IMG/VR virus record: IMGVR_UViG_2579779107_000005
DNA: 64,000 nt
Reading direction: 5' to 3' (one strand)
Source of the DNA: a virus
Lineage: Duplodnaviria > Heunggongvirae > Uroviricota > Caudoviricetes
This document shows, piece by piece, positions 3,225-39,705 of the stretch. Positions within the stretch are counted from its first letter, which is position 1, and every line of letters starts with the position of its first letter. The notes beneath the pieces are model-generated. The model saw nothing but the letters and a program-made list of their open reading frames with translations, did no database searches and was not told the origin of the DNA. The translations under genes were made by a program, and so were the position numbers.

Positions 3225-3247
3225 CTCCCAGGAAACTTCCAGAAAAC
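3225..3247 (-). promoter_or_regulatory. late-gene upstream motif, two copies (CTCCCAGGAAACTTCCAGAAAAC)
   Basis: Tandem TCCCAGGAAAC / TCCAGAAAAC. Lies 20-45 nt upstream of the GTG start at 3205. Confidence 0.45.
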
Positions 3248-3256
3248 GCGAATCCG

Positions 3257-4810: not shown

Positions 4811-4839
4811 GCCAGCGATCTTACAGTCAGTTCTCAGGG

Positions 4840-4852
4840 TTTTCCCAGAAAC
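4840..4852 (-). promoter_or_regulatory. late-gene upstream motif (TTTTCCCAGAAAC)
   Basis: Motif abuts the TerL stop and lies about 30 nt upstream of the portal GTG. Confidence 0.4.
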
Positions 4853-6669
4853 TAAAGAGGGGTTCCCACTGCGTTCCGTCGGATGTTGAGCATCTCGAAG
4901 GGGTCGCGCATCACCGTGGTGCCCTTCTTCATCTTGTTCACGGGGTCGTCGAGCCCGGGAAGGAGGGCTGAGGCGTAGATGCACGTGTCTGCCGCGTCGG
5001 GCGACTTGACGCCTCGCTTCTTCATTGACTCCTTGCTCTCGATGAGCATGGCGTTGTAGGGCGGCGCGACCTCGTAGAGGATGTCGCCGAGCTGCTCGAG
5101 GAGTAGCGCATCCTCGGGATCGAGGTCGATGAGCCCCTTCTCCATGCGGTCGCGCATCTTGTCGTACTGGAAGGCGCGATCGTTCTTGTGCACGTTGGGA
5201 TCGGGCGCCGAGCGCGAACCGAGCATCGAGATGATGGTGTACGGCGGATTGGCGCCGGCGACGGAGAACAGGGCGTCGATGAGGCCCTGGCCGATGCCCG
5301 AGCCGTCGATTCGGACCTGCTGGACGCCCAGGTTGACGGCGTGCTGATGGATGAGCGTGGCCTGGCCGACCGTGTGCAGGAGTCCGCCGTTGGGGTCGTT
5401 CTCCACGCGGTCGGTGAAGGGCTTGCCCCGGAAGCTGTCGACGTAGCGAATGCGCGCGCCTTCAACATCGGAGACGTTCCCCAGCTCGCTCGTGACGTGG
5501 CCGTCATCGTGGACGGTCTCGACCCACTCGTACATGAGGCCGGACTCGGAGAGGTAGAGGAAGGTCGAGTCGCCGGACTCTGCGCGGGCGACGTCGACGC
5601 CGAGGAAGCGCCGGCTATCGTCCGGGATGAAGCACTCGGCGTCCCGAGCCTTGCCGAGCGCGTACTCCGAGAAGAGGTTGTTGCCCTCGTCGTAGGCGAA
5701 CATGCCGAGCACCCGGGAGCGGAAGCGCGGGGAGTCGACACCGTACTCGAGGCGCTTCTCCTCGACGTAAGTGGGGCCGGAGAGCGAGCGCAGTGCCTCG
5801 GCGGAGAGCCCGAGGCCGAGCGGCAGGAGGTCGTGTTCGGCCTTGCGCGGGCAGTCGTCGGCGCAGAGCCCGCCTCCGTGGAAGTTGGGGGAGTCGAGCA
5901 CCGAGATAGCGTGCAAATCCCAGGAGACGCCGTAGGGTTCGCCGGTCTTCTCGTTGATCTTGCCGGAGAAGATGGCACCCAGTCGCGACGCTGGGTTCGT
6001 CGGGTTGGCGATCAGCAGACGGCGCGAGGTGTCGTTCGAGGTGATGTTGGAGAGCGAGTCGATCATCGCCTCGTTCAGGCCCACCGCCTCGTCGCCGATG
6101 GCGAGGACGTACTGGGCATGGATGCCCTGGAAGGCGTCCTCCTTATGGTCCGGCGGCTTGCGACCCTGGGCGATGAGCACGCCGAGCGAGGTCTTCCACT
6201 CGTCGTTGCCGGTGATGTAGCCGGGGAGCTGGTGGTCCGGGTAGCCGGCGGTGTCCTTGCCCTCGGCCTGCAGGCGCTTGAACTCCTTGTGGCGGTCGAT
6301 CGACTTCGCCATGAGTCCACGGATTTCGCGCCAGAGGATCGCCTTGACCTGTGCGGCTGATGGAGCGGTGGTCGCCACGAATGCGGAGCCGAGCGGGTGC
6401 ACGTCGATCCACCAGCACACAAGCACGGCGGAGAGGAACGACTTGCCGACACCGTGGCCGGCGCGCACGGCGACGGACTTCTTCTTGCCGATGGCGATGG
6501 CGTAGGCAATCTCCTGCTGCTTCCACCACAGGTCGACGTCGAGGATGTCCTTGGCCCACAGCACCGGGTCGGTGATGTACTTCGCCTTGCGTGCGTCGGC
6601 GCGCAGACCGTCCTCGACGTGGGGGAGGAGGTCTGTGAGCCAGCCGGCGTCGGCGACCGCCATGCTCAC
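4852..6669 (-). CDS. terminase large subunit
   Basis: 605 aa. Walker A (VRAGHGVGKS) and Walker B-like (VLAIGDEA) ATPase motifs, plus a C-terminal nuclease-type acidic region. Classic TerL position upstream of portal. Confidence 0.85.
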   Translation of the reverse strand: MSMAVADAGWLTDLLPHVEDGLRADARKAKYITDPVLWAKDILDVDLWWKQQEIAYAIAIGKKKSVAVRAGHGVGKSFLSAVLVCWWIDVHPLGSAFVATTAPSAAQVKAILWREIRGLMAKSIDRHKEFKRLQAEGKDTAGYPDHQLPGYITGNDEWKTSLGVLIAQGRKPPDHKEDAFQGIHAQYVLAIGDEAVGLNEAMIDSLSNITSNDTSRRLLIANPTNPASRLGAIFSGKINEKTGEPYGVSWDLHAISVLDSPNFHGGGLCADDCPRKAEHDLLPLGLGLSAEALRSLSGPTYVEEKRLEYGVDSPRFRSRVLGMFAYDEGNNLFSEYALGKARDAECFIPDDSRRFLGVDVARAESGDSTFLYLSESGLMYEWVETVHDDGHVTSELGNVSDVEGARIRYVDSFRGKPFTDRVENDPNGGLLHTVGQATLIHQHAVNLGVQQVRIDGSGIGQGLIDALFSVAGANPPYTIISMLGSRSAPDPNVHKNDRAFQYDKMRDRMEKGLIDLDPEDALLLEQLGDILYEVAPPYNAMLIESKESMKKRGVKSPDAADTCIYASALLPGLDDPVNKMKKGTTVMRDPFEMLNIRRNAVGTPL

Positions 6670-7196
6670 TGCTGCTCGATCCTCTTCTCGACCGTCTCGA
6701 CGGCGGCCGGGAGCTTGAGCAGGAAGACCTCCTGGACCTCGGCGGTCGGGACGTCGTGACGACGCGCCAGCTCGTCGGCGGCGGCGAGCATGGCGACCTG
6801 GATCGCCGCGAGCATGATCCGGGCCTGGCCTTCGCGGACCTGGTTGGCGAGCTTCTCCGGGTCGATGCGGTTCTTGTTGATCTGGTCCTGCTTCATCTTG
6901 AGCGCCTTGAGCGCCGTGTTGATGTGCTGGACGCTTCCGGCTTCGATTCCCGTGCGCAGGCTCGAGATGATGTCGTTGATCGACTCGAGGAGGAGCTGTT
7001 CCTGCTCGAAGTACGTGAGCCAGTTGCGATTCTCGAGCAGGTCTCGGACGCGCTGTGCGGCCTGCTCAGGCGACACCACGCCATTGACGGCCTGCGACAT
7101 CTCCTTGGGGCTGAGGCCGTCAGAGGCGGCGCGCAGGAGCTTCCGGTCGAGGGGACCGTTCGCGAGACCGCGCTCGTACTTCTGGACTTCTGCCAC
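6666..7196 (-). CDS. terminase small subunit (putative)
   Basis: 176 aa ORF overlapping the TerL start by 4 nt. First gene of the late operon. Helical composition. No specific motif, so called by position. Confidence 0.45.
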   Translation of the reverse strand: MAEVQKYERGLANGPLDRKLLRAASDGLSPKEMSQAVNGVVSPEQAAQRVRDLLENRNWLTYFEQEQLLLESINDIISSLRTGIEAGSVQHINTALKALKMKQDQINKNRIDPEKLANQVREGQARIMLAAIQVAMLAAADELARRHDVPTAEVQEVFLLKLPAAVETVEKRIEQQ

Positions 7197-7216
7197 GCGA
7201 CTACTCTAGGGTGGCT

Positions 7217-7237
7217 CTCGGGAAACTCCCAGGAAAC
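7217..7237 (-). promoter_or_regulatory. late-gene upstream motif, two copies (CTCGGGAAACTCCCAGGAAAC)
   Basis: Lies 20-40 nt upstream of the TerS start at 7196. Confidence 0.45.
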
Positions 7238-7245
7238 GGGTGGCG

Positions 7246-7290
7246 AGAGCCCCGGTCGACTTGAACTCGGCCGGGGCTCTCGTTTTGGGC
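7246..7290 (+). terminator. hairpin plus T-tract (terminator-like), T-tract used as IS target
   Basis: GAGCCCCGG-N15-CCGGGGCTC followed by TCGTTTTGGG. The T-tract is duplicated at 10152-10166 as the IS target-site duplication. Confidence 0.35.
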
Positions 7291-7293
7291 TTG
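7279..7293. repeat. target-site duplication, left copy (CTCGTTTTGGGCTTG)
   Basis: Identical 15-mer at 10152-10166. Each copy directly abuts a terminal inverted repeat of the IS481-like element. Confidence 0.6.
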
Positions 7294-7487
7294 TGTCATG
7301 TCGCAGGAGATGGGTGACGGTTCTGTATCAGGACATCGGTGACAGTTTGGGTGGTCTTGGTGGTGACACTTCATGGCGGGGGCGCTGGTTGTTCTCGTGA
7401 CTCCGGCATTGCAGCGGCCATGAGGGAGGGGTGCGAGCAAAGGCTCGCACCCCTCCGGAATCGTCTATTCGGTTTTCACCGTCTTGG

Positions 7488-7715
7488 TTAGGTCGGGTGG
7501 TTGATGCGTGCTGGGGCCTGCTTGCGAGAACGCAGCCGCCGGTATCTCTGTCCGAGGAAGTAGAGGCCTGGTGCTCCGAGCGCGGTCGCGAGGATTGCCT
7601 GCATCGTGGCGTTGAGCATCACCAGGACGGCGGCCATGGCCGCGCCGACGAGCAACGACACGAAGAAGTCCTCTACGAGGTAGTAAAGCGACTTCGGTTC
7701 TTTAGCACTTGACAT
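7488..7715 (-). CDS. small membrane protein (IS passenger)
   Basis: 75 aa ORF with one strongly hydrophobic segment (FFVSLLVGAAMAAVLVMLNATMQAILATALGAPGLYFLG). Inside the IS, upstream of the secreted-protein gene. Confidence 0.3.
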   Translation of the reverse strand: MSSAKEPKSLYYLVEDFFVSLLVGAAMAAVLVMLNATMQAILATALGAPGLYFLGQRYRRLRSRKQAPARINHPT

Positions 7716-8634
7716 CGTAGATCAGCCCCGGTCCGACGTATGGAATGTTCAACTGGATGCAACGTCCTGCCTTGAGGGCGTTGGTGGCGGCGTTCTTGAC
7801 GATCTGGAAACCCAGGTTTGCCACAGTAGTACAGGCCGCACCAGCAAGCCCGCCGATGATGCAGAGATAGGAGAACATCTGCCCGGCGCTGGCGAAGTCG
7901 GCGGCCTGTTTCGTCTCTGCCTTAGTGAATTTCGCCGTCCTACCCCACCACAGCCAGGTAACCGACGGATCTGCGACCACCGGGAACGCTGTCGTGGCGG
8001 TGAAGTCTACGACCTGGGTGAGCGTGTTGCCATTCAGCTCGTAGTGCGTGGGGACGGCTACGCCGTTAGCGTCTTTCGCCCACGGTGCAGCGATGTAGGC
8101 GAGGGTAGCGCCGTCACCGTTCACGACGAAGTAGGCCTCGCCCGCCTGAAGTATCTGGCCCCCGTCTGGAACGGTGAGTGCGTAATCATACCGTTTCGGG
8201 GCGATTGCAGCGGTGATGACCGTGTTGATTTGAATCGAGCCGTCGGTTGTGACTACGGGGACCGAGCTGGAGCCGTTGTTGTTGTCGTAGGAGACGACAC
8301 CGTCTTTCTCGACGTTTACGTTGCTGGCGCCGCCGGCGTAAGGCAGCCCCACCGACAGCACGCCCGCCGCGGTGCCGAGCGTGATGCCCGAAACCGGGTC
8401 AATCGGGACAGTGACATCCGCCCCCGACACCTGCGCATCGATCGCGTTCTCACCCGAATCTGTCGTCGCGACTGCCGCAGCGTTGTTTGCAGTCTCCGGC
8501 GTCGCGCTCGTCACCGTGCCGAGGACGTCACCTGCGCCGTTGTCTGCAAGCGCGGGTGCAGCGCCCAACAGTGCTAGCGACATGATCACTGTCGTTACGA
8601 TCGCCGCTTCCCCCAGATATTTCCTGATCCGCAT
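7702..8634 (-). CDS. secreted protein of unknown function (IS passenger)
   Basis: 310 aa. N-terminal signal peptide (MRIRKYLGEAAIVTTVIMSLALLGAAPALA). Gly/Thr/Val-rich beta composition with a C-terminal Cys pair. Locally lower GC. Confidence 0.5.
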   Translation of the reverse strand: MRIRKYLGEAAIVTTVIMSLALLGAAPALADNGAGDVLGTVTSATPETANNAAAVATTDSGENAIDAQVSGADVTVPIDPVSGITLGTAAGVLSVGLPYAGGASNVNVEKDGVVSYDNNNGSSSVPVVTTDGSIQINTVITAAIAPKRYDYALTVPDGGQILQAGEAYFVVNGDGATLAYIAAPWAKDANGVAVPTHYELNGNTLTQVVDFTATTAFPVVADPSVTWLWWGRTAKFTKAETKQAADFASAGQMFSYLCIIGGLAGAACTTVANLGFQIVKNAATNALKAGRCIQLNIPYVGPGLIYDVKC

Positions 8635-8811
8635 TGTGTTTCAACTTTCTTGTCGAGACCAATGGAACTGACAGTGCTCGCCACCCGCCCTGCGGAGCGA
8701 TCGGATCAGCTACCCCCTGGATGGCGAACGTAACAGCCGCCGACCACGGCCCGCAATCCCGCGGCTCCAGCGGACGCAAACGGCCAGGAGCGTTTGGTTG
8801 GGAGGCTCATC

Positions 8812-10091
8812 GAGTGACAGCGAATGAACCTATCGATCCCCGAATCCGTCTCGCGATCGCACAGTGGCCCGACGATGCGCCGCATGGTGCCATCTCGACG
8901 TTCTGCATTGAGCACAGCATCTCACGCAAGTCGTTCTACGAGTTACGAAAACGCGCGCAGACGGAGGGGCCGGCGGCAGTGCTCGAGCCGCGGTCCAGAC
9001 GTCCGAAGTCAAGTCCAGCGCGGATTCAGGACAACATGAAGTCTCAGGCGCTACAGGTGAGAGCCGCCTTGGAATTGTCCGGTCTGGACCACGGGCCCAT
9101 CAGCGTGCACGACAGGATGCGCTCGATGGGAATCGACAGTGTGCCCTCGATCGCATCGCTGGCCCGAATTTTCCGGGAAGCGGGAGTGGCCAAACTTGAG
9201 CCAAAGAAGAAACCTCGATCGGCATGGCGGCGGTTCGTCTATCCAGCACCGAATGCGTGCTGGCAACTCGACGCCACCGAGTACGTCCTCACCGGTGGCC
9301 GTAAGTGCGTCATCTTCCAACTGATTGACGATCACTCCCGCTTCGCAGTCGCTTCTCATGTCGCATGGGGTGAAACTTCCGAGGCCGCCGTGGCGATATT
9401 CGACAAGGGGGTTCGTGCGCATGGAGTGCCCCAACGGCTCCTGTCCGATAACGGGGCAGCGCTGAACCCCTCGCGTCGTGGGATCCTGGGCCAACTAGTG
9501 AAACACGCCTCCGCCCTAGGAACCGAGGCCATCACCGGCAAACCCTACAAGCCGACCACTCAGGGCAAGAACGAACGTTTTCACCAAACCCTGTTCCGCT
9601 ACCTCGACAAGCAACCCCTGGCAACCACCCTGGCAGAGCTCCAGGGTCAGGTTGACACGTTCGACCGCATCTACAACACCCAGCGTCCCCACCAGGGACT
9701 CCCCGGACGCGCGACGCCCCAAACAGCGTGGGATGCCACCCCGAAGGCGGACGCACCCCGACCCAAACCAGAACAGCCCCTCTTCGCCCGAACGGCCAGC
9801 AAACGCTTCCACCGCGCGCCCGCACCGACCGAACTGCCAGACGGCGTCGTCCTCAGAAACCTGAGCAGCGCCGGCACGTTCACACTCGGACGAGTCACCT
9901 ACATCGTCGGCGGCCAGTACCGCTTCCAGCAGGTCCTAGCCATCGTTGACGGCGACACGATCACCGTCTCCAACCTCGACGGCGAGATCCTTATCGAGCA
10001 CACCCGCCCACCCGCCGGGGTGACCTACGTCGGCAACGGCAGACCCAGCGGCCCACGCCCCAAAAACTCCACAACGTCACCGAAGTCCTGA
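8812..10091 (+). CDS. IS481-family DDE transposase
   Basis: N-terminal HTH region then an rve-type DDE core (WQLDATE, LLSDNGAA, KNERFHQTL). ORF track starts at 8634, but GTG 8812 (VTANEPIDPRIRLAIAQW) is the likely start. Confidence 0.8.
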
Positions 10092-10151
10092 GACACCAAC
10101 TGTCGCCGGTCTCCTGATACAGAACTGTCACCGATGTCGCGAGACAAGACA

Positions 10152-10166
10152 CTCGTTTTGGGCTTG
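10152..10166. repeat. target-site duplication, right copy (CTCGTTTTGGGCTTG)
   Basis: See left copy at 7279-7293. Confidence 0.6.
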
Positions 10167-10179
10167 CGCTCGGCCCCAA

Positions 10180-10195
10180 TCGAACATATGTTCGA
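10180..10195. promoter_or_regulatory. perfect 16-bp palindrome TCGAACATATGTTCGA
   Basis: Perfect dyad in an AT-richer stretch between the DGQHR gene 3' end and the original TerS upstream region. Candidate operator/late-promoter element. Confidence 0.35.
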
Positions 10196-10371
10196 TACAT
10201 GGGATGGGGAAGGTCGAACGAAGAAGGTTTCCGGGGTCAGTACCCGGCGCCGCTGGATTGGGATGCGATCGAGCAGGAGTTACTCGCAAAGGCGGCAGGA
10301 GACAGCGAACCGCCCCAGCGCGGTCGGGATACGCCGGGGCGGCCGGTGAGCGACGAGCAGGACTAGGGGGC

Positions 10372-11808
10372 CTACAGGTCGCCCGTCTCGCGAGCTGCTC
10401 GCGCAGCCGCGGTCTCGGGGCGAAGGAGGGCGTCGGCCTCCTCCTCGGTCAGGCTGTCGAAGTCGAACTCCGCCTCTGCCGGCCGCGGGGTGGGCGCAGC
10501 GTTCAGGAAGTCCGGCTTGTCGATAGCCCAACCGACGAATGCGTCAACGACGGCGACCGCATCCTGGCGGCGGCTCGAGGGAGCGCTCATGCCGGGAATG
10601 AAGCTCGGCATGCCGATCTGCTCGAACAGCATCGAGCCCTCCCAGATGGGCACCTCGAGGTGCGGAGCGAGCTTCTTGAAGAACTCCTCGACCATGGCCG
10701 TCGAGAAGGCGTGGTCAGTCACCAGCTCGTAGCGCGTTGCGGCGAGGATGCGCAGGAAGACCGGAGCGCCAAGGAGCGAGTGGGCGCGCAGGTCGTCGGC
10801 CGTGATCTGCCCATGCTGGAGCTGGTAGAGCGGCGGGAAGGCGCGAACGAGCGAATCGAAGAAGTCCTTGGCGTTCTTCTCGATTTCCTTGTCGTTGAGC
10901 TGTGCCTCCACGCGCTTGCCGACTCGGCCTTCGTAGCCGACCGTGAGGGCGCGCACGGTCTCGATGACGTACTTGGCGGTGGTGAAGTACGGGGACTTCT
11001 GCGGTAGCCGGTCGGTCTCGGTCTCGACGCGATTCGCGAGCAGCGGGTGGCTCAGGATGTCCTCGAGCGCACGGTTGACCGCCTTGCGGGAGTCGAAGCG
11101 TGCGCGGACGGACGCCGTGATGCCCTTCGCGTTCTCGGCAATGTCGTAGAACGCCTGACGGTAGTTCTGGGGGTCGGCCTCCACCATGATCTGCACGGGG
11201 ATGCGCTCGCGGGTGAATCGCGCCGCCTGGGTCTCGAGCGCCGCCTTCTGGCGCTCGAACTCGGCGACAGCATTTCCATCCTCAATGCGGCGCGCCTTCT
11301 TGATTAGCTCGCTGATCTTCGCTACGTCGGCGTTTATCCCGTCGAGGGCCTCGTACAGACCGAGGATTCGGTGCTGACCGTCGAGGATGTGGACCTCGCC
11401 AACCGCGGAGCGCTGGAAGGAGACGGCGCCGAAGGCCACGCCGTGTGCCTCATCGGTTGCGGCCTCGAACTCGAAGGGGCGCTCGGTGCGCAGAATGATG
11501 CCGGGCACGACCCACTCGGGGGTGGCGCGCAGGTATGTGGCGAAGTCGCTCGCGTGCTTGGGGTTGATGCGGCGGTTCCCCACAGTGGGGACCTCGGGGT
11601 TCGGCCGCGGGACGAGGGACATGATCTGCAGCAGCGACAGGTCCAAGAGGTAGTTCGTACGACCGCCCTGGACGAACCGAGTGCCGTAGTAGGTCTCCTT
11701 GGTGTTGTAGCCCGTGGCCGCGGGCAGTGTGGACAGATTCAGTGACATATTCATCCCGTCAAGGGTGGTGGGGTGCGCGGGCTGCGCGTTTTGCGGTCTA
11801 TATATCAT
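10372..11808 (-). CDS. DGQHR-domain protein (DndB-like, ParB/Srx-fold)
   Basis: 478 aa with the signature ILDGQHRILG and surrounding DndB-type conserved blocks. No dndACDE or dpdA partners visible in the window. Confidence 0.7.
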   Translation of the reverse strand: MIYRPQNAQPAHPTTLDGMNMSLNLSTLPAATGYNTKETYYGTRFVQGGRTNYLLDLSLLQIMSLVPRPNPEVPTVGNRRINPKHASDFATYLRATPEWVVPGIILRTERPFEFEAATDEAHGVAFGAVSFQRSAVGEVHILDGQHRILGLYEALDGINADVAKISELIKKARRIEDGNAVAEFERQKAALETQAARFTRERIPVQIMVEADPQNYRQAFYDIAENAKGITASVRARFDSRKAVNRALEDILSHPLLANRVETETDRLPQKSPYFTTAKYVIETVRALTVGYEGRVGKRVEAQLNDKEIEKNAKDFFDSLVRAFPPLYQLQHGQITADDLRAHSLLGAPVFLRILAATRYELVTDHAFSTAMVEEFFKKLAPHLEVPIWEGSMLFEQIGMPSFIPGMSAPSSRRQDAVAVVDAFVGWAIDKPDFLNAAPTPRPAEAEFDFDSLTEEEADALLRPETAAARAARETGDL

Positions 11809-18451: not shown

Positions 18452-18951
18452 GCGGTGGCCCCGAGGGTCTTGGCGGCCTCGAGGAGGTCGGTGAAGGTGT
18501 AGCCGTGCTCCTCGAGCACGTCTTCCAGCTCGCCGGTCCAGCCGGAGTTGCCGAAGGGGCGCTTGCCGGAGAAGCCCTCGTCCTCGTAGAGGACGGTCCA
18601 GAGCAGCTTGCCGAGGTACTCGCGGATCGACGAGGCGTTGGCGTCGTTCTCGTCCGGGTTCATGGGGAGGTCGAGGATCGGGTGCTTGTCGGCCACGGGG
18701 GACTCCTTCGTGTTCGGGGCGCCGTCGGGGACGGTCTGCCAGGCGGGGACGCAGCGCTGGACGGCGCTGGTGTAGAGGACGCCCTTGCGGCCGTATCGGC
18801 GGGCGCTGTTGAGGCGGTCGGTGCGCATGCCGCGGGCAGCGCCGAGCGTTCCGTAAGGGCCGTAGATGTCGGTCTCGACGGTGCCGTCCGGCAGGGTCTT
18901 GTAGATGACGGCGCGGAAGCTCTCGCCGTCGGCGGCTTGGCGGCGGGCCAT
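18448..18951 (-). CDS. hypothetical protein
   Basis: 167 aa starting at MARRQAADGESFRAV. The upstream S/T/P/R-rich part of the 308-aa ORF in the track is an artefact frame. Confidence 0.45.
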   Translation of the reverse strand: MARRQAADGESFRAVIYKTLPDGTVETDIYGPYGTLGAARGMRTDRLNSARRYGRKGVLYTSAVQRCVPAWQTVPDGAPNTKESPVADKHPILDLPMNPDENDANASSIREYLGKLLWTVLYEDEGFSGKRPFGNSGWTGELEDVLEEHGYTFTDLLEAAKTLGATA

Positions 18952-19130
18952 CAGGCGTTCGCCTCTCGGACGAGCTGGTCGAGCCAGAGCTGGGCCTCGT
19001 CGAGCTTGGTGAAGACGAGCGCCTTCTCGCGCGAGACGGGGAGCTGGGCGACCTGGGCGCGCGCGGTGTTGAGGCCGCTGTGTGCGCGTTCGACGGCGGC
19101 CAGTTCGCGGCCGTTGAGAGCCACGGTCAC
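18951..19130 (-). CDS. small hypothetical protein
   Basis: 59 aa. GTG start overlapping the upstream stop. Confidence 0.3.
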   Translation of the reverse strand: MTVALNGRELAAVERAHSGLNTARAQVAQLPVSREKALVFTKLDEAQLWLDQLVREANA

Positions 19131-19494: not shown

Positions 19495-19599
19495 CTAGTT
19501 GACGAGCAGGTACAGGGTGATGAGGTCGGCCAGGGCGAGTGCCCCGGCCACAGCCAGGAGGATCGAGTTGACCCTCCTGGCGCGGCGGGGGGTGGTCAC
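19495..19599 (-). CDS. small membrane peptide
   Basis: About 34 aa (VTTPRRARRVNSILLAVAGALALADLITLYLLVN). GTG start overlapping the SPFH gene stop. Confidence 0.25.
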   Translation of the reverse strand: MTTPRRARRVNSILLAVAGALALADLITLYLLVN

Positions 19600-20591
19600 T
19601 ACTTGGCCGGCGTCTGGATCAGCGGGTTCGAGCCCTGGGGGACGACGAACACGGTGCCGGCCTTGAGGGCGTCGATGTAGTGCTGCTGCAGCACCTCGGG
19701 GGTCAGCGACTGCGTGAGGAGCTGGTTGGCCTTGGCGTCGGCCTCGGCCTTGGTGACGGCCTGCTGCGAGGAGACCTTGGCGGCGTCGAGCTTGGCCTGC
19801 TCCTTGGTGACGTCGATCTGAGCCTGCTGGGCGGCGGCGTAGCTGTCGGTGACCGCCTGGGGAGCGCGAATCTCCTGCAGCGAGATGCTGTCGACCGTGA
19901 CGCCGGCCTTGGCCCAGCGGGTCTCGAGCGCGTTCTTGATCTTGGCCTCGACGTCGGCACGCTTGGTGAGCAGGTCGATCGTGGAGAAGGCGTTCGGCAC
20001 CTCGCGGACGACGGCGCGGATGTCCTGCTCGATGAACGACTTCTTGAAGTTGTCCTCGGTCTTGAACTGCTTGTAGATGTCCGTGACGGCGGAGGCGACG
20101 ACCGAGTAGCGGACGGCCACGTCGATGTTGGAGGTCACGCCGTCCTGGTCCTGGACGGTGATCTGGGGGCCGGCCGCCTGGCCGCCGTTGTTGTCGTTCT
20201 GGTTGCCGCTGGCGCCGGCGAAGACGATCTGCTGGGTGCCGGTGCTGAACGAGATGGTGTCGACCCACGGCGCCTTGGTGTGGAGGCCGGATTCGGTGGT
20301 GGAGCCGACGAGGTTGCCGGTCCAGTCCTTGAGCTGCACCGACTCGCGCGTCTCCTGCGTGTAGAAGAGCTGCGGGACGCTGGCGCCGAGCCCGCCGATG
20401 ATGGCTGCGACGGTCAGGCCGAGGGCGACCCACTTGGCGACGGCGCTGGGGCCGTACTGGATGTAGTAGCGCTCCTCCGCCTTCTTCTGCCTGTGGATCG
20501 CCAGGGCCTTCTTGTAGGCGCGGGTGAGGGCGATGGTGACGACGATGCCGACCAGGCCCAGGATGAGCAAGATGAGTCCGAAAACGAACAC
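19599..20591 (-). CDS. SPFH/band-7 (prohibitin/HflK-like) domain membrane protein
   Basis: 330 aa. N-terminal TM helix, then an SPFH-type core (IDVAVRYSVVASAVTDIYKQF...), then a C-terminal coiled-coil (QQAQIDVTKEQAKLDAAKVSSQQAVTKAEADAKANQLL). Confidence 0.65.
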   Translation of the reverse strand: MFVFGLILLILGLVGIVVTIALTRAYKKALAIHRQKKAEERYYIQYGPSAVAKWVALGLTVAAIIGGLGASVPQLFYTQETRESVQLKDWTGNLVGSTTESGLHTKAPWVDTISFSTGTQQIVFAGASGNQNDNNGGQAAGPQITVQDQDGVTSNIDVAVRYSVVASAVTDIYKQFKTEDNFKKSFIEQDIRAVVREVPNAFSTIDLLTKRADVEAKIKNALETRWAKAGVTVDSISLQEIRAPQAVTDSYAAAQQAQIDVTKEQAKLDAAKVSSQQAVTKAEADAKANQLLTQSLTPEVLQQHYIDALKAGTVFVVPQGSNPLIQTPAK

Positions 20592-22049
20592 GTATCCTCC
20601 AGGTGATTTAGCGGGCTATTTGCCCTCTGGAATCCCACTATGGGGCAAGTGCGGCACTAGTTCAAGAAATTTAGCGGGCAATTTTCGGCGGTCCCCGCGG
20701 GGAGCTGGAAGGAGTGGCCGGCGAGGGGTTTCGTCGAAGCGGTGCAACTGGGGCAATCGCACCGCTCGGGCGCCGGCGAGGCGCACACCCGCCCCCGGCC
20801 TTTCGCGCGCGTCCCCCTGTCTTAAAATCTGAGGGCTTTCAGGTGGTTCCCAGGTTCGCGTTCGCGGAAAAAAAGATTCGCTGTTTCTGGAGCGTGATCT
20901 ATACCCCCCTCTGTGCGCGCGCGTGTGTGTTCTCTTTTCGATCATGGGGTGCATCAATCGTAAGTTGTTTCTTGATTCGGCTAGTGGTGTGTTAGTGTCT
21001 CTCTTGTCAGCGCGAAAGGCCCCCGGGCCGGAGGTGCTAGCGATCGAATCTTGAGAATTGAATATCGACCTAGCGGGGGAGCGATCCCCATACGCAATAG
21101 CTACAGGCGCTAACCAGAATCCGGCATGCGGGGATATGAAAGGGCAATGCGAGCAATCGCAGAGCTGCAAAGAATGCGCTTGAGAATCAGCAGACTGGAC
21201 AGAGCACGCCCCCGGGCCGCTACTCACGTACTTGCATACTTAGTCGCCACGCTGAATCACTAGCTAAAGTGCAAAACAGATAGCGACCTGCTAGAGTCGG
21301 TATCACGCCGAACGGGGCAAACCGGGAAACCGGTCACACCCCGCGAGACGCATCAAGATACGCAAACGCGAAACCAGCAACGTGCGGGCTGCAACCCAAT
21401 CCGACCTGGTTGAGCACCCGTCCTGGGCCACGGGCCTAGCCGAGACAGGGATTCACGTAGAGCGCCATGCGCACGGTTGTCCGTGCTCAGTCCGGTGGGC
21501 TTGACCCACACGGCCATGCTGCTCCACGCCCGAAATAGGCAGGGATGCGGAATCGCAACTTGGGAATTCAATAGTGGACTCTTAGCGCGCTAATGCCATA
21601 GCGCTCGCCCCTCGACACTGGGCGGCCTAGGCGCGTAGAGCATCATCCGATCGGCCATAGTGCCGCGCATCGGATCGCGCTTGGTAAGCGCGTGTCGTAC
21701 TAGCTCGACCTGTGCGAGCAAGTAGCCGAACAACCTCTCAGCTACAGAGGCACCAGTACGAGTGTGCCTAGGCGGAATTGCAGCCCGTCACCCCACAGTG
21801 GAACCGACCGAACGCCCTCTCCTGGGCGTGCACACCAGCGGGTCGGGAACCGTGACAGGACCACGGAACGAATTGAGTACCAAGATTTGCACCACCCCTA
21901 GCGCTGTCAGCCCGGGTATCCATCCCCGGCATGCGAACCACGCCGCAGGGTCACGCGGCAGCCCCGTGCTCCCACTACAGGTGGGCGCGGTCAGACCGGG
22001 CACGGGGCACGCATCATCCACCATCCGCACACACCAGACAGGGGACCAC
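20592..22049. other. long non-coding, lower-GC divergent switch region
   Basis: About 1.46 kb with no convincing ORF (the listed ORFs are low-complexity artefacts). Two TTAGCGGGC(T/A)A motif copies at 20607-20618 and 20671-20682. A duplicated module, CTTGAGAATTGAATATCGACCTAGCG at about 21047 and CTTGGGAATTCAATAGTGGACTCTTAGCG at about 21566. GC-rich hairpins (GGCCCCCGGGCC). Confidence 0.5.
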
Positions 22050-22329
22050 CATGTCCAAATCCGCCACCCTCGACCGGCCCACCATCACCCACGCGATCGA
22101 CACGGCGGGGCGCGACCTGGGTCCCGTGTCCAAGCGCACGGCCGAGTACCTGTACCTCGCCGACGGATCGCGCATCGCCCTCCACCGTGTGCAGAAGCTC
22201 GCGGCCACCCCCATGCCCACCCAGCAGAAGACCGTCCAGCCGGGCGTCACCCTGCACCAGTTCCCGGACGGCCAGTACCACGTGTCCACCACGGACCAGT
22301 GGCTCGCCGCCTGGGGTGAGGAGCTGTAG
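22050..22329 (+). CDS. hypothetical protein
   Basis: 93 aa from ATG 22050 (MSKSATLDRPTITHAI...). The longer upstream frames are artefacts. Confidence 0.45.
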
Positions 22330-22470
22330 AACCATGCCCAACCGCGACCACAAGCGCACCCCCGAATCCAAGGCCCGCACCCGCCAGCGTCAGCAGGCCC
22401 GCGCCCTCAAGTACGGCAAGACCCGCAAGCTGCGCTAGATTAGCCAGCAATTCATCAACCGGAGGCATTC

Positions 22471-22839
22471 GTGACCGCACCCATCCTCAGCACCAAAGGC
22501 ACGCCCATCACGTCCCGCGACGCTCTCGCCCAGTCGGCAGAGCGCGCCCGCCGCAGGCTCGCGGCCCACTCCCACGCCCCCGCCGGCGTCCTGTGGGACA
22601 GGCTCGCCGACCGCACCGACCTCGACCGAAAGCACGCCAAGAGCGTCGTGCTCTCGCCCGCGTACCACCTCGGCATCGCCCGTGCCTTCAACCGGGTCTC
22701 CCGCCACGCAGCGCTGCGCGGCACTCCCGGCGCGACCATCGGCAAGATCCTGCGCCCCTACGGCGAAGACGCCCGCGCCATCAGCCAGCTAATCCCGCAG
22801 GCGTACCGCGCCCCGCGCCCTCTGGAGGCCCGCGCATGA
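22471..22839 (+). CDS. hypothetical protein
   Basis: 122 aa ORF. GTG start after a TTAGC-motif gap. Confidence 0.45.
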   Translation: MTAPILSTKGTPITSRDALAQSAERARRRLAAHSHAPAGVLWDRLADRTDLDRKHAKSVVLSPAYHLGIARAFNRVSRHAALRGTPGATIGKILRPYGEDARAISQLIPQAYRAPRPLEARA

Positions 22840-22942
22840 GCTGGCTCGACATCATCCGCGCCCTGCTCAACCGCGGCGCCTGCTGGTACGGCCAGCACAC
22901 CACCCACTCGACGCGCTGCACCCTCAACTGAGAGGCACACCC

Positions 22943-23320
22943 ATGCGCTACTTCGGAGTCCTCAACGGCTCGGCCCTCGCCCCGTCGGGCATCCATGACC
23001 GTGAGGCCGTGGTCGTGCTCGATTCGATCCGCCACGCAGAGGACCACCTCTCGTTCGCCCATGTTGGCGCGAACCTCGCCCTGCGCAGCCACGGCGGCAA
23101 GACGCTCGACGGCGAGTACCCCGGCGACATTCCCGGCGGAGTGGGAGACGGGTCTCGCATCACGCTCTTTCAGGTGCCCCGCAGCTCTGTCTACGAGACG
23201 GACGACATGGACGCGGGGGAGCTGTATGACCTGCTGCTCCGCTGCTACGGCCCGGACCTCCACCCGGACTACGAACTGACCGTCGGCCCCCGTGGGGGCG
23301 TCAAGATCGAGAGGCTCTGA
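22943..23320 (+). CDS. hypothetical protein
   Basis: 125 aa ORF. Confidence 0.45.
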   Translation: MRYFGVLNGSALAPSGIHDREAVVVLDSIRHAEDHLSFAHVGANLALRSHGGKTLDGEYPGDIPGGVGDGSRITLFQVPRSSVYETDDMDAGELYDLLLRCYGPDLHPDYELTVGPRGGVKIERL

Positions 23321-23823: not shown

Positions 23824-24600
23824 GTGACCACCGAAGACACCACCCCCGACGACGGCCGCAGCGTCGTCGCCTACGACAACCTCGACCGTGCGCTCACCAT
23901 CTGGGGAGCCACGTTCTACGACCAGACCTGGACCGCCCAGGAGAAGCGTTACCTGCTCGATGAGGCCGAGGCTGGCTTCGACGCCACGAACGAAGACCCC
24001 GACGGCTTCCGAGTCTGGGTCTCCACCTTCGGCCTCTACAACGCCGGGAGTCTCGCGGGCTACTGGGTCGCCGCCGAGCACGCCCCGACCACCGTGCCCG
24101 AGTTCATCGCTGGCATGGTCATCCGCAACCACAGCGTCGGCAAGAGCTTCCTGCAGAACGTGGGGGAGGAGCTGAACTGCTTCGACATCGAGAACAGCCC
24201 CGTCGACGCCGAGATGCACCCGAGCGCCGCGAAGGCATGGGCAGAGGCCATCAACGCGACCATCGCTGACCAGGGCGATCAGGTCACCACCTCGCTCATT
24301 GTCACCTTCATCCGCGACCACACCGGGGGCATCTGGCCCGACGACCTCACCAGCACCTTCGACGACCGCTTCCACGGCTTCTGGGAAGACGGCATCGCCT
24401 CCTGGTGGGTTGAGAACGTCTGGGAGACCTGGGTCGCCGAGTACAAGCAGCTCGCCGAGCACTCCTACCCGCGAGTCACGCTCCCCGACTGGCTGGAGTA
24501 CGCCGCATGGGGGATCGCCAAGAGCCAGGCCGAGGACTACCGCCTCTCCGGGTGGGCCGAGATTCACACCAACGACGGTGTGGCGGTGTTCAGCGAGTGA
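23824..24600 (+). CDS. hypothetical protein
   Basis: 258 aa ORF. Trp-rich, acidic. Confidence 0.5.
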   Translation: MTTEDTTPDDGRSVVAYDNLDRALTIWGATFYDQTWTAQEKRYLLDEAEAGFDATNEDPDGFRVWVSTFGLYNAGSLAGYWVAAEHAPTTVPEFIAGMVIRNHSVGKSFLQNVGEELNCFDIENSPVDAEMHPSAAKAWAEAINATIADQGDQVTTSLIVTFIRDHTGGIWPDDLTSTFDDRFHGFWEDGIASWWVENVWETWVAEYKQLAEHSYPRVTLPDWLEYAAWGIAKSQAEDYRLSGWAEIHTNDGVAVFSE

Positions 24601-25937: not shown

Positions 25938-25945
25938 CTCGAATC

Positions 25946-25990
25946 TGGGAGGGGTTCGCAGACACCCGTCGCGGACCCCTCCCCGCATTT
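25946..25990 (+). terminator. terminator-like hairpin
   Basis: GGGAGGGGTTCGC-N10-GCGGACCCCTCCC followed by GCATTTACC. Confidence 0.45.
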
Positions 25991-26290
25991 ACCAGCTATC
26001 TCACTATGTAGCTAATATATTCATATAGTTAGTTGTATTAAGAGCATAGAGATAGTGTCACTACAACTCCCTGGTCAGGCCCCATTTCGCCCGCCCCGGA
26101 AAATCAACAACAACGGTCACATAGCGGGCTAATTCGCACTACATCGTGGACATACGCTATAAAGAAGCTGCACGCATCTTCATCAGGGTGCATAGCGGAT
26201 CGATATAGCGCATGTCGGCGATATAGCGGGAAATCCGCAGCAATGTGACCGGTATAGCCGATCCTGAACTTAGCTGGCTATTCGAACATC
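25990..26290. repeat. AT-rich segment plus iteron-like (T)ATAGCGG repeats (putative origin/regulatory region)
   Basis: AT-rich 25990-26060 (CTAATATATTCATATAGTTAGTTGTATTAAGAGCATAGAGATAG). Six (T)ATAGC(G/C)(G) repeats at about 26121, 26192, 26205, 26222, 26253 and 26270. Largest gap in the early plus block. Confidence 0.45.
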
Positions 26291-26332
26291 AACCCCTCAC
26301 GAACACTCGAACATTCATTCGATTGGAGCATC

Positions 26333-37540: not shown

Positions 37541-37804
37541 AATTAGTGGGCAATTGCCCCTTGCGTTAGCCCGCTAAACGGCATACCTTGATAGTCACAG
37601 GCAGTCACACAATGACCGCCCCGACCGGAGAGGAGGACCCGTGTTCTGGCAAAACTCGCGTAGGAGGTGAGTTGCTCCCCAGTGAACCCAATCGAACTGA
37701 GGAGCGACCACCATCAGAAGGCGCAGAAGGAATCGGCCGGGCGAGGCAGCTCTCCCTACGAGCTGCCTCCCCGGCCCCACCCATTAGAACAGGAGTTTCA
37801 CCGC

Positions 37805-38833
37805 GTGTCACACGACGACATGACCGAAGACGAGATGAGGGACCTGATGGTCCTGGCGCTCAACCCGACCACCGAGCGCGACCTCCAGATCGAGGTCGGC
37901 GCATCCAACCTGTCCAACCCGTGCGAGCGGTGCCAGGCATTCGAGCTGGTCGGCGTCGACCGCAGCGACCCGATCCTCGACAACGCCTGGGGCGGCCGAG
38001 TGATCGGCACCGCCATCCACAAGCACGCCCAGGGCAACCTCGACAAGGCGGCCGAGACCGCCAACCAGTTCGGCGACGACCTGGCGAAGCTCGGCTGGAT
38101 GTACCCGGGCATGGCACCCGAGAAGCCGGTGTGCCTCGGTGAGCTTCTGCCCGGCCGCACCATCACCTCGACTACCGACCTCTGGCTCCCCAGCCGTCGC
38201 ACCGTCGCCGACATCAAGAACACCGACCTGCGCCACCTCGCCTACTTCCGCGACGCGCTCTCGATCATGCGCGGCGATGGCCCCATCTTCGGGCGCGACC
38301 ACGAGTTCGTCGTGGTCTACGAGCTGACCACCGTCAAGTCCGGCCCGAGCAAGGGTCAGGAGGTCTACCGCAAGGCCAGCAAGGGCGTCTCCGAGCGCGC
38401 CTACGCCGAAGGCATCGCCATGGCGCAGTACAAGATCACCCAGTACCTCCGCCAGCTCCACCTCTACGGGTACGCCCTCGAGCTGGGCGGCGAGACGGTC
38501 AAGCTGCTCTTCATCAACTTCGTGGCCCGCGACTCCGCCATGACCGTCGACAACATCGGAACAGCCCGCTATTTCGAGGTCAACGCGCCCCGCGGCATCT
38601 CCGCCCACCGCTTCGTCTACAGCCGCGACTACGCCGCAGGCATCTGGAAGGAGGCGCAGGCCAAGGCCAAGGCGCTCGACGACGGCAGCAAGGAGCCGCT
38701 CGACTACATGGCACACCCGCTGTGCCTCGTCTGCTCCAGCGAGGAGACCCGCCTCTCCCGCGCGTCGGTCACGGTCGAGGCCCCGACCATCACCGCGGTC
38801 GATGAGTGGGCTGTCCCGGCGGTGGCCGCGTGA
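37805..38833 (+). CDS. RecB/Cas4-like nuclease (PD-(D/E)XK fold with Cys cluster)
   Basis: N-terminal CERC and C-terminal CLVC Cys pairs flank a core with nuclease-like acidic/lys motifs. Start GTG 37805 (AGGAG 9 nt upstream) or ATG 37820. Confidence 0.45.
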   Translation: MSHDDMTEDEMRDLMVLALNPTTERDLQIEVGASNLSNPCERCQAFELVGVDRSDPILDNAWGGRVIGTAIHKHAQGNLDKAAETANQFGDDLAKLGWMYPGMAPEKPVCLGELLPGRTITSTTDLWLPSRRTVADIKNTDLRHLAYFRDALSIMRGDGPIFGRDHEFVVVYELTTVKSGPSKGQEVYRKASKGVSERAYAEGIAMAQYKITQYLRQLHLYGYALELGGETVKLLFINFVARDSAMTVDNIGTARYFEVNAPRGISAHRFVYSRDYAAGIWKEAQAKAKALDDGSKEPLDYMAHPLCLVCSSEETRLSRASVTVEAPTITAVDEWAVPAVAA

Positions 38834-39705
38834 TCGAACTCAGGACAATCATCGGGACGGGCTTCGTCACGACTCCGACGTTCGAGGCGATGCGCTTCCC
38901 GGCAGGGGAGTCGCACGTCAAGATCGCTAACGAGAACGCCGGCAAGGGGTCGCTCACCGAGGTGGCGCGGCTCTACGGTCACGACCCGGCCGACCTGTTC
39001 ACCTTGGCGATGTGGGCGGACGCCGTGCACCAGCGTGGTTCTCGCGCCGTCGCCCAGATTCCCTACCTGCCGGGCGCCCGCGCCGACCGCGGGCTCCCGT
39101 TCGGAGCCAAGGTCTACGCGAAGTTCCTCAACGAGCTGCAGCTCGACAAGGTGGTCGCCGTCGACGTGCATTCGCCCGTCATGGAGAACCTCGTCGAGCG
39201 GCTCGCCGTCGTCGACTCTGCCCCCATCATCCGCCGGCAGGTCGTCGGACGCCCCGACCGCGACGAGCACGCCCAGCGCCACACCGGCATCATCGCCCCC
39301 GACAAGGGAGCGCGCCGCCGTGCCGAAGCGGTCGCCGCCATCTGTGGGCTCCCGGTCTATCAAGCCGAGAAGCACCGCGACGAGGCCACCGGCAAGCTCT
39401 CCGGCTTCTCATGCGAGCCTCTTCCCGAGGACGGCAAGTTCCTCGTCGTCGACGACATTTGCGACGGCGGCGGGACCTTCATGGGGCTCGCTGCCGCCAC
39501 CGGGGTGCCCAGAGAGCGACTCGACCTCTGGGTGACGCATGGCGTCTTCACCGGCGCCGCACCCGCCCTGCGCCACCGCTTCGGCCACCTCTGGACCACC
39601 GACTCGTTCTCGAGCCCGCTGCTCAAGGAGGACTGGCTGCCGGTCCCCGCCAACTTCCTCACCCGCATCTCCCTCGCCCCCTACATGAACGGAGCCCTTC
39701 TGTGA
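38830..39705 (+). CDS. Prs-like phosphoribosyltransferase (ribose-phosphate pyrophosphokinase / possible ADPR-PP synthetase)
   Basis: PRPP-binding loop FLVVDDICDGGGT. Prs-like length (about 291 aa). GTGA-overlapped with the upstream gene and overlaps the NAMPT-like gene. Confidence 0.65.
   Translation: MIELRTIIGTGFVTTPTFEAMRFPAGESHVKIANENAGKGSLTEVARLYGHDPADLFTLAMWADAVHQRGSRAVAQIPYLPGARADRGLPFGAKVYAKFLNELQLDKVVAVDVHSPVMENLVERLAVVDSAPIIRRQVVGRPDRDEHAQRHTGIIAPDKGARRRAEAVAAICGLPVYQAEKHRDEATGKLSGFSCEPLPEDGKFLVVDDICDGGGTFMGLAAATGVPRERLDLWVTHGVFTGAAPALRHRFGHLWTTDSFSSPLLKEDWLPVPANFLTRISLAPYMNGALL

Follow-up and report, generated by a model that had tools for sequence, protein, structure and literature searches.

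The window analyzed here, a 64,000-nucleotide (nt) stretch of DNA, represents a phage-like element, a phage or prophage, of Leifsonia aquatica: its Band-7 protein is 100% identical to an L. aquatica protein encoded on a 638-kb contig. Leftward genes occupy positions 1 to 20591 and rightward genes positions 22051 to 51001, and the region 20592-22050 parts the two operons. The first gene of the leftward operon encodes a Band-7/SPFH protein and starts with GTG at 20591; the end of its 5' untranslated region (UTR), with the ribosome-binding site GGAGG (20596-20600), lies on the minus strand at 20592-20605, without change in L003 and also retained in L006, the two relatives described below. The rightward operon opens with an orphan gene for a protein of 92 amino acids (also 92 amino acids in the public record), whose ribosome-binding site AGGGGA and ATG (22051) lie at 22037-22053 on the plus strand, where the third-position GC signal begins. 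Homologue searches left the two nearest rightward genes as orphans, and the right-hand neighbor proteins had no match in Pfam or PHROGs. At the start of each operon lies a weak, below-threshold match to an anti-defense family (ArdA-like at 23824-24600 in the rightward operon and Acb2/Tad1-like at 18951-19130 in the leftward operon), which fits the presence of two early promoters. No helix-turn-helix domain or repressor able to bind the repeats of the region was found among ∼30 proteins encoded near it.

A search for homologues of the Band-7 protein identified L003 (84% identity) and L006 (76%); other matches (≤67% identity) were not syntenic and belonged to other phages (L004, L007, L010, and L011) or were chromosomal (L005). 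L003, a metagenome contig of 2.1 kb, is the sole relative found to cover the region and aligns up to ∼21530, and the right half (21530-22050) had no relative in the collections searched. No match to the region was obtained by blastn against phages (50,697 records, "distant" mode) and plasmids, and megablast with 24 kb around it returned three short matches (53 to 168 nt, ≤1% of the query) to unrelated Gordonia and Microbacterium phages. In IMG/VR, searches anchored on the Band-7, 92-amino-acid, and ArdA-like proteins gave no match, and pattern scans with a 21-mer and an island-2b pattern gave 0 matches. An 18-mer had only two chance matches in GTDB genomes (Alphaproteobacteria and Bacteriovoracaceae), and a two-block pattern had 0 matches in metagenomes, where the 59 matches to an island-1 pattern were all attributed to chance by nhmmer.

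The first-pass annotation had described the region as lacking any credible open reading frame (ORF) and as lower in GC, and our analyses bear out both statements. Third-position GC reaches 0.92 to 1.00 in the flanking genes, while the three frames are alike between 20600 and 22000 (0.46 to 0.72); a single blip, at 20650-20850, reflects an ORF of 43 codons, which a 140-nt insertion interrupts in L003. None of the 18 ORFs of ≥20 codons lying wholly inside 20592-21530 is kept in L003, and 15 of them contain stops or frame-shifting length changes there. The ORF at 21070-21156 shows a one-base difference from L003, those at 21334-21417 and 21353-21517 lie in non-aligning DNA (36 to 39% identity, with L003 35 to 38 nt shorter), and neither the start nor the stop codon of that at 20742-20825 is present in L003. 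Small conserved ORFs were rejected on the basis of this comparison. The ten longest stop-to-stop frames of the region had no Pfam or PHROGs match at an E value of ≤0.1, and pseudogene remnants were likewise rejected, as no frame shows such similarity. GC content is 0.59, 0.59, and 0.63 in three 500-nt bins, versus 0.67 to 0.72 in the flanks; its range across the region is 0.50 to 0.63, compared to ∼0.68, with the minimum of 0.50 at 20850-21074. AT skew switches at ∼21000-21040 from −0.28/−0.38 to +0.2/+0.48, and from 21000 to 22050 the composition (A>T, C≥G) resembles that of the strand encoding the rightward genes.

No conserved gene was thus found, and the region is conserved in the single relative that covers it, in a patchy manner. 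Alignment with L003 revealed islands of 82 to 97% identity, separated by DNA of 32 to 60% identity, and the differences include the 140-nt insertion, a 39-nt deletion, non-triplet indels, and unalignable DNA between the islands. The adjacent coding gene is ∼87% identical overall and 78% identical at four-fold third positions. The identity of the islands is therefore as high as, or higher than, that of the adjacent gene while the DNA between them cannot be aligned, a bimodal pattern that selection on the islands would produce, suggesting that they are under purifying selection. The gap might instead be mostly decayed or recombinational filler, made up of lost-gene remnants or mosaic junction DNA in which only the two promoters matter and the patchy similarity to L003 reflects recombination history, not function. 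The large indels, the orphan status of the adjoining rightward genes, and the right half without a homologue in the collections searched are compatible with this explanation, as is an insertion sequence in the element (rve transposase, 8634-10091), which implies that the element may be degenerating. Since the islands match or beat the coding gene next to them and no frame resembles a Pfam or PHROGs family, we consider it quite improbable.

A predicted promoter of the leftward operon, termed P_L (20637-20665, minus strand), has a −35 hexamer TTGAAC (20660-20665), a 17-nt spacer, a −10 hexamer CATAGT (20637-20642), and a predicted start site at ∼20630. It is the sole combination of a TTG-type −35 with a NANNNT −10 on either strand of 20560-22080; it is identical in L003 and takes the form TTGCAT-17-CAGAGT, with a different spacer sequence, in L006. 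A scan with the canonical sigma-70 consensus found nothing because its threshold (9/12) exceeds the score of P_L (8/12). The two motif copies noticed earlier at the left edge are indeed there (TTAGCGGGC at 20608 and 20671) and flank P_L as part of a 16-mer, ATTTAGCGGGCWATTT, whose two copies agree at 15/16 positions and lie 63 bp apart; L006 retains the two copies, and L003 retains one. The first operator-like site, O1 (ATTTAGCGGGCAATTT; 20669-20684, plus strand), is located 63 bp from O2 and, relative to the P_L −35, 5 bp upstream; its core is found in L006 at a spacing of 61 bp and is degenerate in L003 (TTAGCCAGC). The second, O2 (ATTTAGCGGGCTATTT; 20606-20621, plus strand), lies between the predicted P_L start and the ribosome-binding site, and its TTAGCGGGC core is kept in both L003 and L006. 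In the window, TTAGCGGGC occurs in 5 exact copies and in 27 copies with ≤1 mismatch (12.3 ± 3.6 expected), and several of the other copies are intergenic, including an inverted pair at 37543-37577. We know of no described operator that the motif resembles. The two ATTTAGCGGGCWATTT sites are read here as predicted operators of P_L.

A candidate rightward promoter, P_R (20990-20998, plus strand), consists of an extended −10 element, TGT-TAGTGT (TGC-TAGTGT in L003), with a predicted start at ∼21005. This TGnTAGTGT sequence is one of just two extended −10 matches on either strand and is conserved in L003 between divergent flanks. P_R is without a good −35, and no TTAGCGGGC-type sites are found at it; its function as a promoter and the transcription of a leader from it are predictions. 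Together, the unique and conserved P_L between the TTAGCGGGC repeats and the conserved extended −10 at the AT-skew flip support the earlier suggestion of divergent early promoters with operators.

The spacer of ∼350 bp between P_L and P_R contains three conserved islands. The first (20738-20767) is 83% identical to L003; the stem that it can form (20738-20766) is missing in L003 although the sequence is kept, indicating that sequence, not structure, is conserved. The second (20798-20846; GCGCGCGTCCCCCTGTC..AAAATCTGAGGGCTTTC) is 82% identical and shares the motif CCCCC-N6-7-GCGCGCGT (repeat family D3) with the next island. The third (20903-20940), identical at 37 of 38 positions, is the most conserved. 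In this island, purines and pyrimidines alternate over a 19-nt tract (20912-20930, TGTGCGCGCGCGTGTGTGT), after which comes TCTCTTTTCG; the sole position at which L003 differs shows a C/T transition, and the alternation stays intact.

Downstream of P_R, we predict an untranslated leader or noncoding RNA (ncRNA) precursor of the rightward operon (21005-22050, plus strand), which is ∼1,045 nt long, A-rich, free of ORFs, and free of intrinsic terminators on the plus strand. Leader island 1 (21033-21091, plus strand; 87% identity to L003) includes the hairpin GGGGA-GCGA-TCCCC (21076-21089); L003 has a GCAA loop here, so that the loop is GNRA in both. It also includes the first copy of a duplicated module proposed in the first-pass annotation. 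The module is present at 21043-21075 and 21552-21587, but the similarity of its copies does not go beyond chance, because their local alignment score of 26 (2.6 standard deviations above shuffles) is exceeded by some shuffles (maximum, 33). Its second copy overlaps a perfect 12-nt palindrome, TTAGCGCGCTAA (21582-21593), composed of two inverted TTAGCG half-sites (feature 21552-21593, plus strand). The GC hairpin motif recurs as an exact 12-mer, GCCCCCGGGCCG, at 21019 and 21208; CTTGAGAAT was found at 21050 and 21179 but is not enriched. Tandem or internal duplication was rejected, with the module at chance level and no period found, as were repeats common to the region and the rest of the window.

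Leader island 2 (21191-21347, plus strand) is 157 nt long and 83% identical to L003, with three 1-nt indels, and holds an exactly conserved 21-mer, CGTACTTGCATACTTAGTCGC. In the consensus fold, ACUGG/CCGGU closes a domain of five stems, among them a hairpin at 21205-21228 that shows three compensatory pairs and a second, at 21313-21343, built around CCGG-GAAA-CCGG. Each of the 35 consensus pairs can form in the two sequences, 3 through compensatory change, and the four G-U pairs would become A-C mismatches on the opposite strand; in a covariation test on these two sequences, which has no statistical power, 63 of 500 shuffles reached the observed value. Folding energies of the conserved islands gave z-scores of −0.3 to −1.5 overall and −0.3 to −1.0 on the plus strand, whereas 150-nt windows on the plus strand ranged from ∼+1.7 to −2.0.

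These properties might be taken to mean that island 2, by itself or together with island 1, constitutes a discrete gene for a small or medium-sized ncRNA of a new family, with its own promoter or processing, that acts in trans, for instance, on host or phage mRNAs, as an element of RNA-based immunity, or against a host defense. The sharp boundaries of island 2 and its five-stem fold, with each pair kept in both sequences, would agree with such a gene, and so would a second extended −10-like element at 21289-21297 (TGC-TAGAGT, conserved as TGC-TAG[A/G]GT). The family would have to be new, as island 2 has no Rfam match: Rfam 15, which includes GOLLD, ROOL, HEARO, riboswitches, 6S, and tmRNA, gave no match at an E value of ≤1 (19500-23000) or ≤10 (20560-22080), and a scan of the whole window at gathering thresholds matched tRNA alone. 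The Rfam comparison proposed in the first-pass annotation thus links the region to no known RNA family, and a known family was ruled out. A discrete gene is disfavored by z-scores of just −0.3 to −0.8 for island 2 on the plus strand, by the lack of a terminator bounding it, and by complementarity to the rest of the window that is at chance level (perfect matches of 12 to 13 nt, E > 1). Moreover, no distant relative appeared in the collections searched, and a covariance model found no second copy in the window or in eight loci (L001, L002, L004, L005, L007, and L010 to L012). We judge an ncRNA gene of this kind to be very doubtful.

A further explanation is that the islands act as DNA, namely as sites at which phage or host proteins bind (operators, nucleoid protein sites, or an origin, packaging, or partition site), so that the long gap would be a protein-DNA hub rather than a transcribed leader with an RNA function. 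That the islands fold no better than shuffled sequence would be expected of such sites, and the stem lost at 20738-20766 despite the kept sequence, the drop in GC to 0.50, the AT-skew switch at ∼21000, and the alternating tract in the island conserved at 37/38 positions point the same way. In addition, TAGCG occurs 8 times on the plus strand, versus 1.6 ± 1.2 times in shuffles; the enrichment holds for one orientation along the region, and sites of this type are also present in a different gene-free region. On the other hand, an island of 157 nt would be long for a site of protein binding, the GNRA loops and the compensatory pairs have been retained, and the composition from 21000 to 22050 is that of the transcribed strand of the rightward genes. 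Iterons, tandem repeats, and DnaA boxes are all absent from the region, and the primase/helicase gene is 22 kb away. We regard action at the DNA level as unlikely.

Of the candidates listed in the first-pass annotation, divergent promoters with operators are supported, a structured RNA may be present, and neither an origin nor an attP-like site is supported. An iteron-type or DnaA-dependent origin would carry at least three direct iterons of ∼17 to 22 bp, an AT-rich unwinding element, and DnaA boxes; the region has only short two-copy repeats and the GC minimum given above, with no DnaA-box match, and a better iteron-like candidate lies at 25938-26332. An attP site would share a core with the host attB and have arm-type sites and an integrase gene beside it; it lacks support in that no integrase was detected among ∼75 proteins scanned and the island family is single-copy. 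Inverted repeats in the region (10 to 26 nt, 74 to 100% complementarity) are at chance level, and the one with a CTTGA motif (21045/21353) is deleted in L003. A repressor/Cro-type switch would have a repressor gene and an antirepressor or cro gene beside the operators, where only Band-7/SPFH (left) and orphans (right) are encoded, and an RNA immunity system of the P4/P1/N15 type would have a small RNA complementary to repeated leader targets, of which none was found.

We therefore favor, at roughly even probability, the explanation that the region is a gene-free divergent early control region together with a long untranslated leader or ncRNA precursor. Established directly are the absence of genes, the conservation pattern of the islands, the P_L hexamers with their flanking repeats, and the composition switch; P_R, leader transcription, operator function, and any RNA role enter as predictions. 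In this model, P_L, a promoter of the host sigma-A type on the minus strand, would drive the Band-7/SPFH operon, and a putative DNA-binding protein would shut or tune it by cooperative binding or looping between the two direct ATTTAGCGGGCWATTT sites, which lie about six helical turns apart, one abutting the −35 and the other in the 5' UTR. P_R would start rightward transcription near 21005, and the first ∼1,045 nt would remain untranslated; this long leader, which may be processed into ncRNAs, would precede the orphan early genes beginning at 22051. The islands at 21033-21091 and 21191-21347 would be the functional parts of this leader and would probably act at the RNA level, in elongation, antitermination, processing, or stability. 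More tentatively, and with rather low confidence, the two islands may belong to an undescribed leader RNA of a Microbacteriaceae phage, which would regulate the early transcript or be released from it by processing; it might serve, for instance, as an RNA polymerase-modifying antiterminator that carries transcription across the untranslated kilobase, or act in trans against functions of the host. Unremarkable folding energies, the poor −35 region of P_R, the covariation result, the lack of a regulator among the nearby proteins scanned, the right half without a relative, and the possibility that the islands are DNA-binding sites were counted against the favored explanation.

By analogy, the closest precedent would be the P_left leader RNAs of the cluster A mycobacteriophages (L5, D29, and StarStuff), in which ∼500 bp of noncoding DNA between P_left and the first gene gives rise to abundant, stable ncRNAs (PMC5712189). 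Both are found in actinobacterial phages, and in both a gene-free stretch directly follows an early promoter (predicted here) and precedes the first early gene; neither has a conserved ORF longer than ∼30 codons, and relatives show many small indels and single-nucleotide polymorphisms. The leader described here differs in its length (∼1,045 nt versus ∼500 bp), in its location within a divergent intergenic region and not at the genome end, and in having no sequence similarity to the right end of L5/D29 (blastn, 50,697 phage records). Whereas the P_left RNAs are very abundant, stable, host-toxic early lytic transcripts, this leader is predicted from the sequence.

Divergent switches of temperate phages include lambda PRM/PR-OR, TP901-1 PR/PL, and the L5 repressor with its operator and stoperators. 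The region resembles them in its back-to-back promoters, one of which is flanked by short repeated sites, and in the motif copies in other intergenic regions, which are reminiscent of stoperators. However, neither flanking gene is repressor- or Cro-like, no helix-turn-helix gene was found nearby, and the promoters are ∼370 bp apart and do not overlap. Antitermination and immunity RNAs in leaders, such as lambda nut, HK022 put, the P4 CI RNA with seqA/seqC, and the P1/P7 c4 RNA, are comparable in that RNA-sized conserved elements lie within a long untranslated early leader, and an untranslated kilobase would require protection against Rho. The elements described here differ in that no similarity to these RNAs was seen in sequence or in Rfam, neither significant internal complementarity nor repeated targets were found, and no N, Q, or Nus-type factor was identified.

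Apart from its unusual length, the region is probably an ordinary phage control region, one whose sequence family is an orphan, and we present the locus as a lead, not a discovery, based on one partial relative. P_L and the two TTAGCGGGC sites form a compact promoter-operator module that could lead to the regulator of the phage. Gene-free stretches of this length are rare in phage genomes, and the P_left leader of L5/D29 yields the most abundant phage transcripts. If borne out, the locus would provide a second, unrelated example of such a leader, in another actinobacterial family and with bounded islands to mutate.

The control region, the gene-free interval at window positions 20592 to 22050, lies in sequence with an overall GC content of 67% and a phage-like gene content. 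Leftward genes run from 20591 to 1 and rightward genes from 22051 to about 51000, which places the control region exactly at the point of divergence. The first leftward gene (19599-20591, minus strand) encodes a Band-7/SPFH protein that matches a Leifsonia aquatica protein from a 638-kb contig at 100% identity, and the first two rightward genes (22051-22329 and 22471-22839) are orphans found in L. aquatica only. The phage-like genes include those for a capsid protein (625-1854, minus strand; large unmatched genes lie alongside, in the usual place of terminase and portal), DUF859 tail genes (DUF859 protein at 54668-57358, minus strand), a putative tape-measure protein (61953-63986, minus strand), a primase-polymerase/D5-type helicase and an SNF2 helicase, and a dNMP kinase, NT5C, RNA ligase, DndB-like protein, NAMPT, and PRPP synthetase. 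The rightward operon carries NAD-salvage genes (PRPP synthetase-like, 38806-39705; NAMPT/NAPRTase, 39012-41222), and a tRNA-Ala(GGC) gene (43396-43484) directly precedes the primase-polymerase gene.

The leftward operon is split, between the DndB-like gene and a putative small terminase gene, by an insertion at ∼7200-10372 of lower GC content (about 0.62) with an rve-family transposase (8634-10091, plus strand) and a 310-amino-acid ORF (7702-8634, minus strand). It resembles an IS element because of the transposase, the lower GC, and the interrupted operon, and it is also present in a second assembly of the same element (L012). Head genes (1-7200) lie at one end of the window and tail genes (51060-64000) at the other, both sets on the minus strand, and L012 (11855-13020) has, just past the left end, an ABC-type ATPase gene in the opposite orientation. 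This arrangement could arise because the integration point falls inside the late operon or because a moron or defense gene occupies that place. No integrase turned up among the roughly 75 proteins scanned; with no sign of a core site either, the attP-like site that the first-pass annotation had considered for the control region was not borne out.

The control region is truly noncoding, as had been proposed from the lack of a credible ORF. Third-position GC is 0.85 to 1.0 in the genes of the window and, in 150-nt windows, 0.92 to 1.00 in the flanking genes, whereas the three frames do not differ from each other across 20600-22000. The 10 longest stop-to-stop frames had no Pfam or PHROG match at an E value of ≤0.1, and no conserved coding gene emerged among the ORFs compared with L003, a short metagenome contig: it keeps none of the 18 ORFs with 20 or more codons located inside 20592-21530, owing to stops, frameshifting indels, unalignable sequence, or missing start and stop codons. 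The region's GC content is indeed lower than that of its surroundings (0.59 to 0.63, falling to 0.50 at its lowest, across 20850-21074).

Searches with the control region against 50,697 phage records and 72,556 plasmids returned no match, and scanning IMG/VR, GTDB genomes, and JGI metagenomes for sequence patterns yielded zero or chance matches only. The Band-7 gene has two close relatives, both on short metagenome contigs: L003 (84% protein identity), with 1,056 bp upstream of the gene, spanning 20592 to about 21530, and L006 (76%), with 91 bp upstream. Remoter Band-7 genes (≤67% identity) lie in unrelated contexts. Identity along the L003 alignment is sharply bimodal, with islands at 20592-20697 (85% identity), 20738-20767 (83%), 20798-20846 (82%), 20903-20940 (97%, 37/38), 20985-20999 (87%), 21033-21091 (87%; island 1), and 21191-21347 (83%; island 2) amid DNA of 32 to 60% identity that is effectively unalignable. 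As a yardstick, identity in the adjacent gene is 88, 91, and 83% at the first, second, and third codon positions and 78% at 4-fold third positions. Since the islands combine gene-level conservation with 1-nt indels amid DNA diverged beyond alignment, they point to selected noncoding elements. L003 lacks a 39-nt segment of the window and carries a 140-nt insertion (780-920, minus-strand reading) opposite 20735/20736, between the leftward promoter module and the next island; the spacer thus tolerates large length changes.

Divergent promoters with operators had been suggested here, and the leftward half of that proposal is well supported. The predicted leftward promoter, P_L (20637-20665, minus strand), lies within the minus-strand sequence GCCCGCTAA-atttc-TTGAAC-(17 nt)-CATAGT-...-GCCCGCTAA-atcacct-GGAGG-atac-GTG and is the single match to a TTG-type −35 with a NANNNT −10 on either strand of 20560-22080. 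The promoter is identical in L003; L006 carries TTGCAT-17-CAGAGT, its spacer differing in sequence, and retains both TTAGCGGGC cores at a 61-bp spacing. The two TTAGCGGGC copies noticed at the left edge belong to two copies of a 16-mer, ATTTAGCGGGCWATTT, with a 63-bp separation. The −35 directly adjoins one copy, and the predicted start site and the ribosome-binding site enclose the other. This is the layout expected for a regulator that binds cooperatively around a promoter, and the repeats are predicted operators. The window is enriched for the core, with 5 exact copies and 27 copies at ≤1 mismatch versus 12.3 ± 3.6 expected. TAGCG occurs 8 times on the plus strand of the control region versus 1.6 ± 1.2 in shuffles, which is suggestive only, as the motif was picked post hoc. 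The neighboring proteins, about 30 of which were scanned, yielded no helix-turn-helix regulator. An inverted pair, TTAGTGGGC ... GCCCGCTAA (37543-37577, with GGGCAATTGCCC inside), in the gap upstream of an exonuclease-like gene at 37667, may be another binding site for the protein that would recognize these repeats.

The rightward promoter is only probable. The region has just two matches to an extended −10 (TGnTANNNT), at 20990-20998 and 21289-21297, both kept in L003. At the first, the candidate P_R, AT skew flips from −0.28/−0.38 to +0.2/+0.48, and from there to 22050 the plus strand has A>T and C≥G, like the rightward coding strand; no intrinsic terminator was predicted on the plus strand of 21000-22050. 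The simplest interpretation would be a transcript beginning near 21005 and extending about 1,045 nt before it reaches the first start codon. A rightward promoter with an untranslated leader of roughly 1 kb behind it, containing islands 1 and 2, is probable. The spacer between P_L and P_R holds three conserved islands, the strongest of which (20903-20940) includes a 19-nt strictly alternating purine-pyrimidine tract (20912-20930); L003 differs by one transition, which preserves the alternation.

Evidence that the leader acts as a structured RNA is weak and points both ways. A hairpin at 21076-21089 has a GNRA loop in both sequences (GCGA versus GCAA in L003), one at 21313-21343 has an inner CCGG-GAAA-CCGG, and the consensus fold of island 2 keeps 35 of 35 pairs in both, with three compensatory pairs, all in hairpin 21205-21228, and four G-U pairs that would be mismatches on the opposite strand. 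With two sequences this pairing carries little weight, as 63 of 500 shuffles equaled it. On the other side, folding z-scores ranged from about +1.7 to −2.0 (150-nt windows, plus strand) and, for islands 1 and 2 alone, from −0.3 to −1.0 (plus strand) and +0.5 to −1.5 (minus strand). No Rfam family matched the region even at an E value of ≤10. An island 2 covariance model found no further copy in the window or in L001, L002, L004, L005, L007, and L010 to L012. A novel leader RNA is possible, though less likely than not. The motifs noted at first are all present. The GC hairpin is an exact 12-mer in two copies (21019 and 21208). The "duplicated module" of about 30 bp exists (21043-21075 and 21552-21587), but its similarity is within chance, as its alignment score of 26 (19.1 ± 2.6 for shuffles) falls below the shuffle maximum of 33; CTTGAGAAT is likewise present but not enriched. 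Immunity by a P4/P1-type RNA found no support: internal complementarity is at chance, and L003 lacks the one pairing in which the CTTGA motif takes part.

The suggested replication origin did not hold up for the control region, which has no iterons, tandem repeats, or DnaA boxes. A better candidate by sequence would be 25938-26332, a further low-GC (0.54) interval that separates rightward genes and has none of its own. This interval contains a terminator-like hairpin (25947-25983), an AT-rich stretch, at least six (A/T)TAGCG-type sites (26121, 26192, 26205, 26223, 26254, and 26270; cluster 26121-26278), CGATATAGCG twice, and a 59-nt imperfect inverted repeat (26103-26161/26204-26262). Its repeats share a common core with the TTAGCGGGC sites, and it is a candidate iteron-type origin or second operator cluster.

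Two subthreshold Pfam matches (cutoff, 27 bits), ArdA-like near the rightward operon start (23824-24600, plus strand; 24.1 bits) and an Acb2/Tad1 hairpin domain near the leftward one (18951-19130, minus strand; 22.1 bits), fit with two early promoters. The closest functional precedent would be cluster A mycobacteriophages, in which a noncoding stretch of about 500 bp separates the early lytic promoter P_left from the first gene and gives rise to the most abundant transcripts of the phage, which are host toxic (PMC5712189). The likeness lies in position and the absence of conserved ORFs; sequence, length (about 500 bp versus ∼1,045 nt for the putative leader), and genomic setting differ. The control region is a real, unusually long, gene-free interval and a new orphan instance of an already known type of phage feature.
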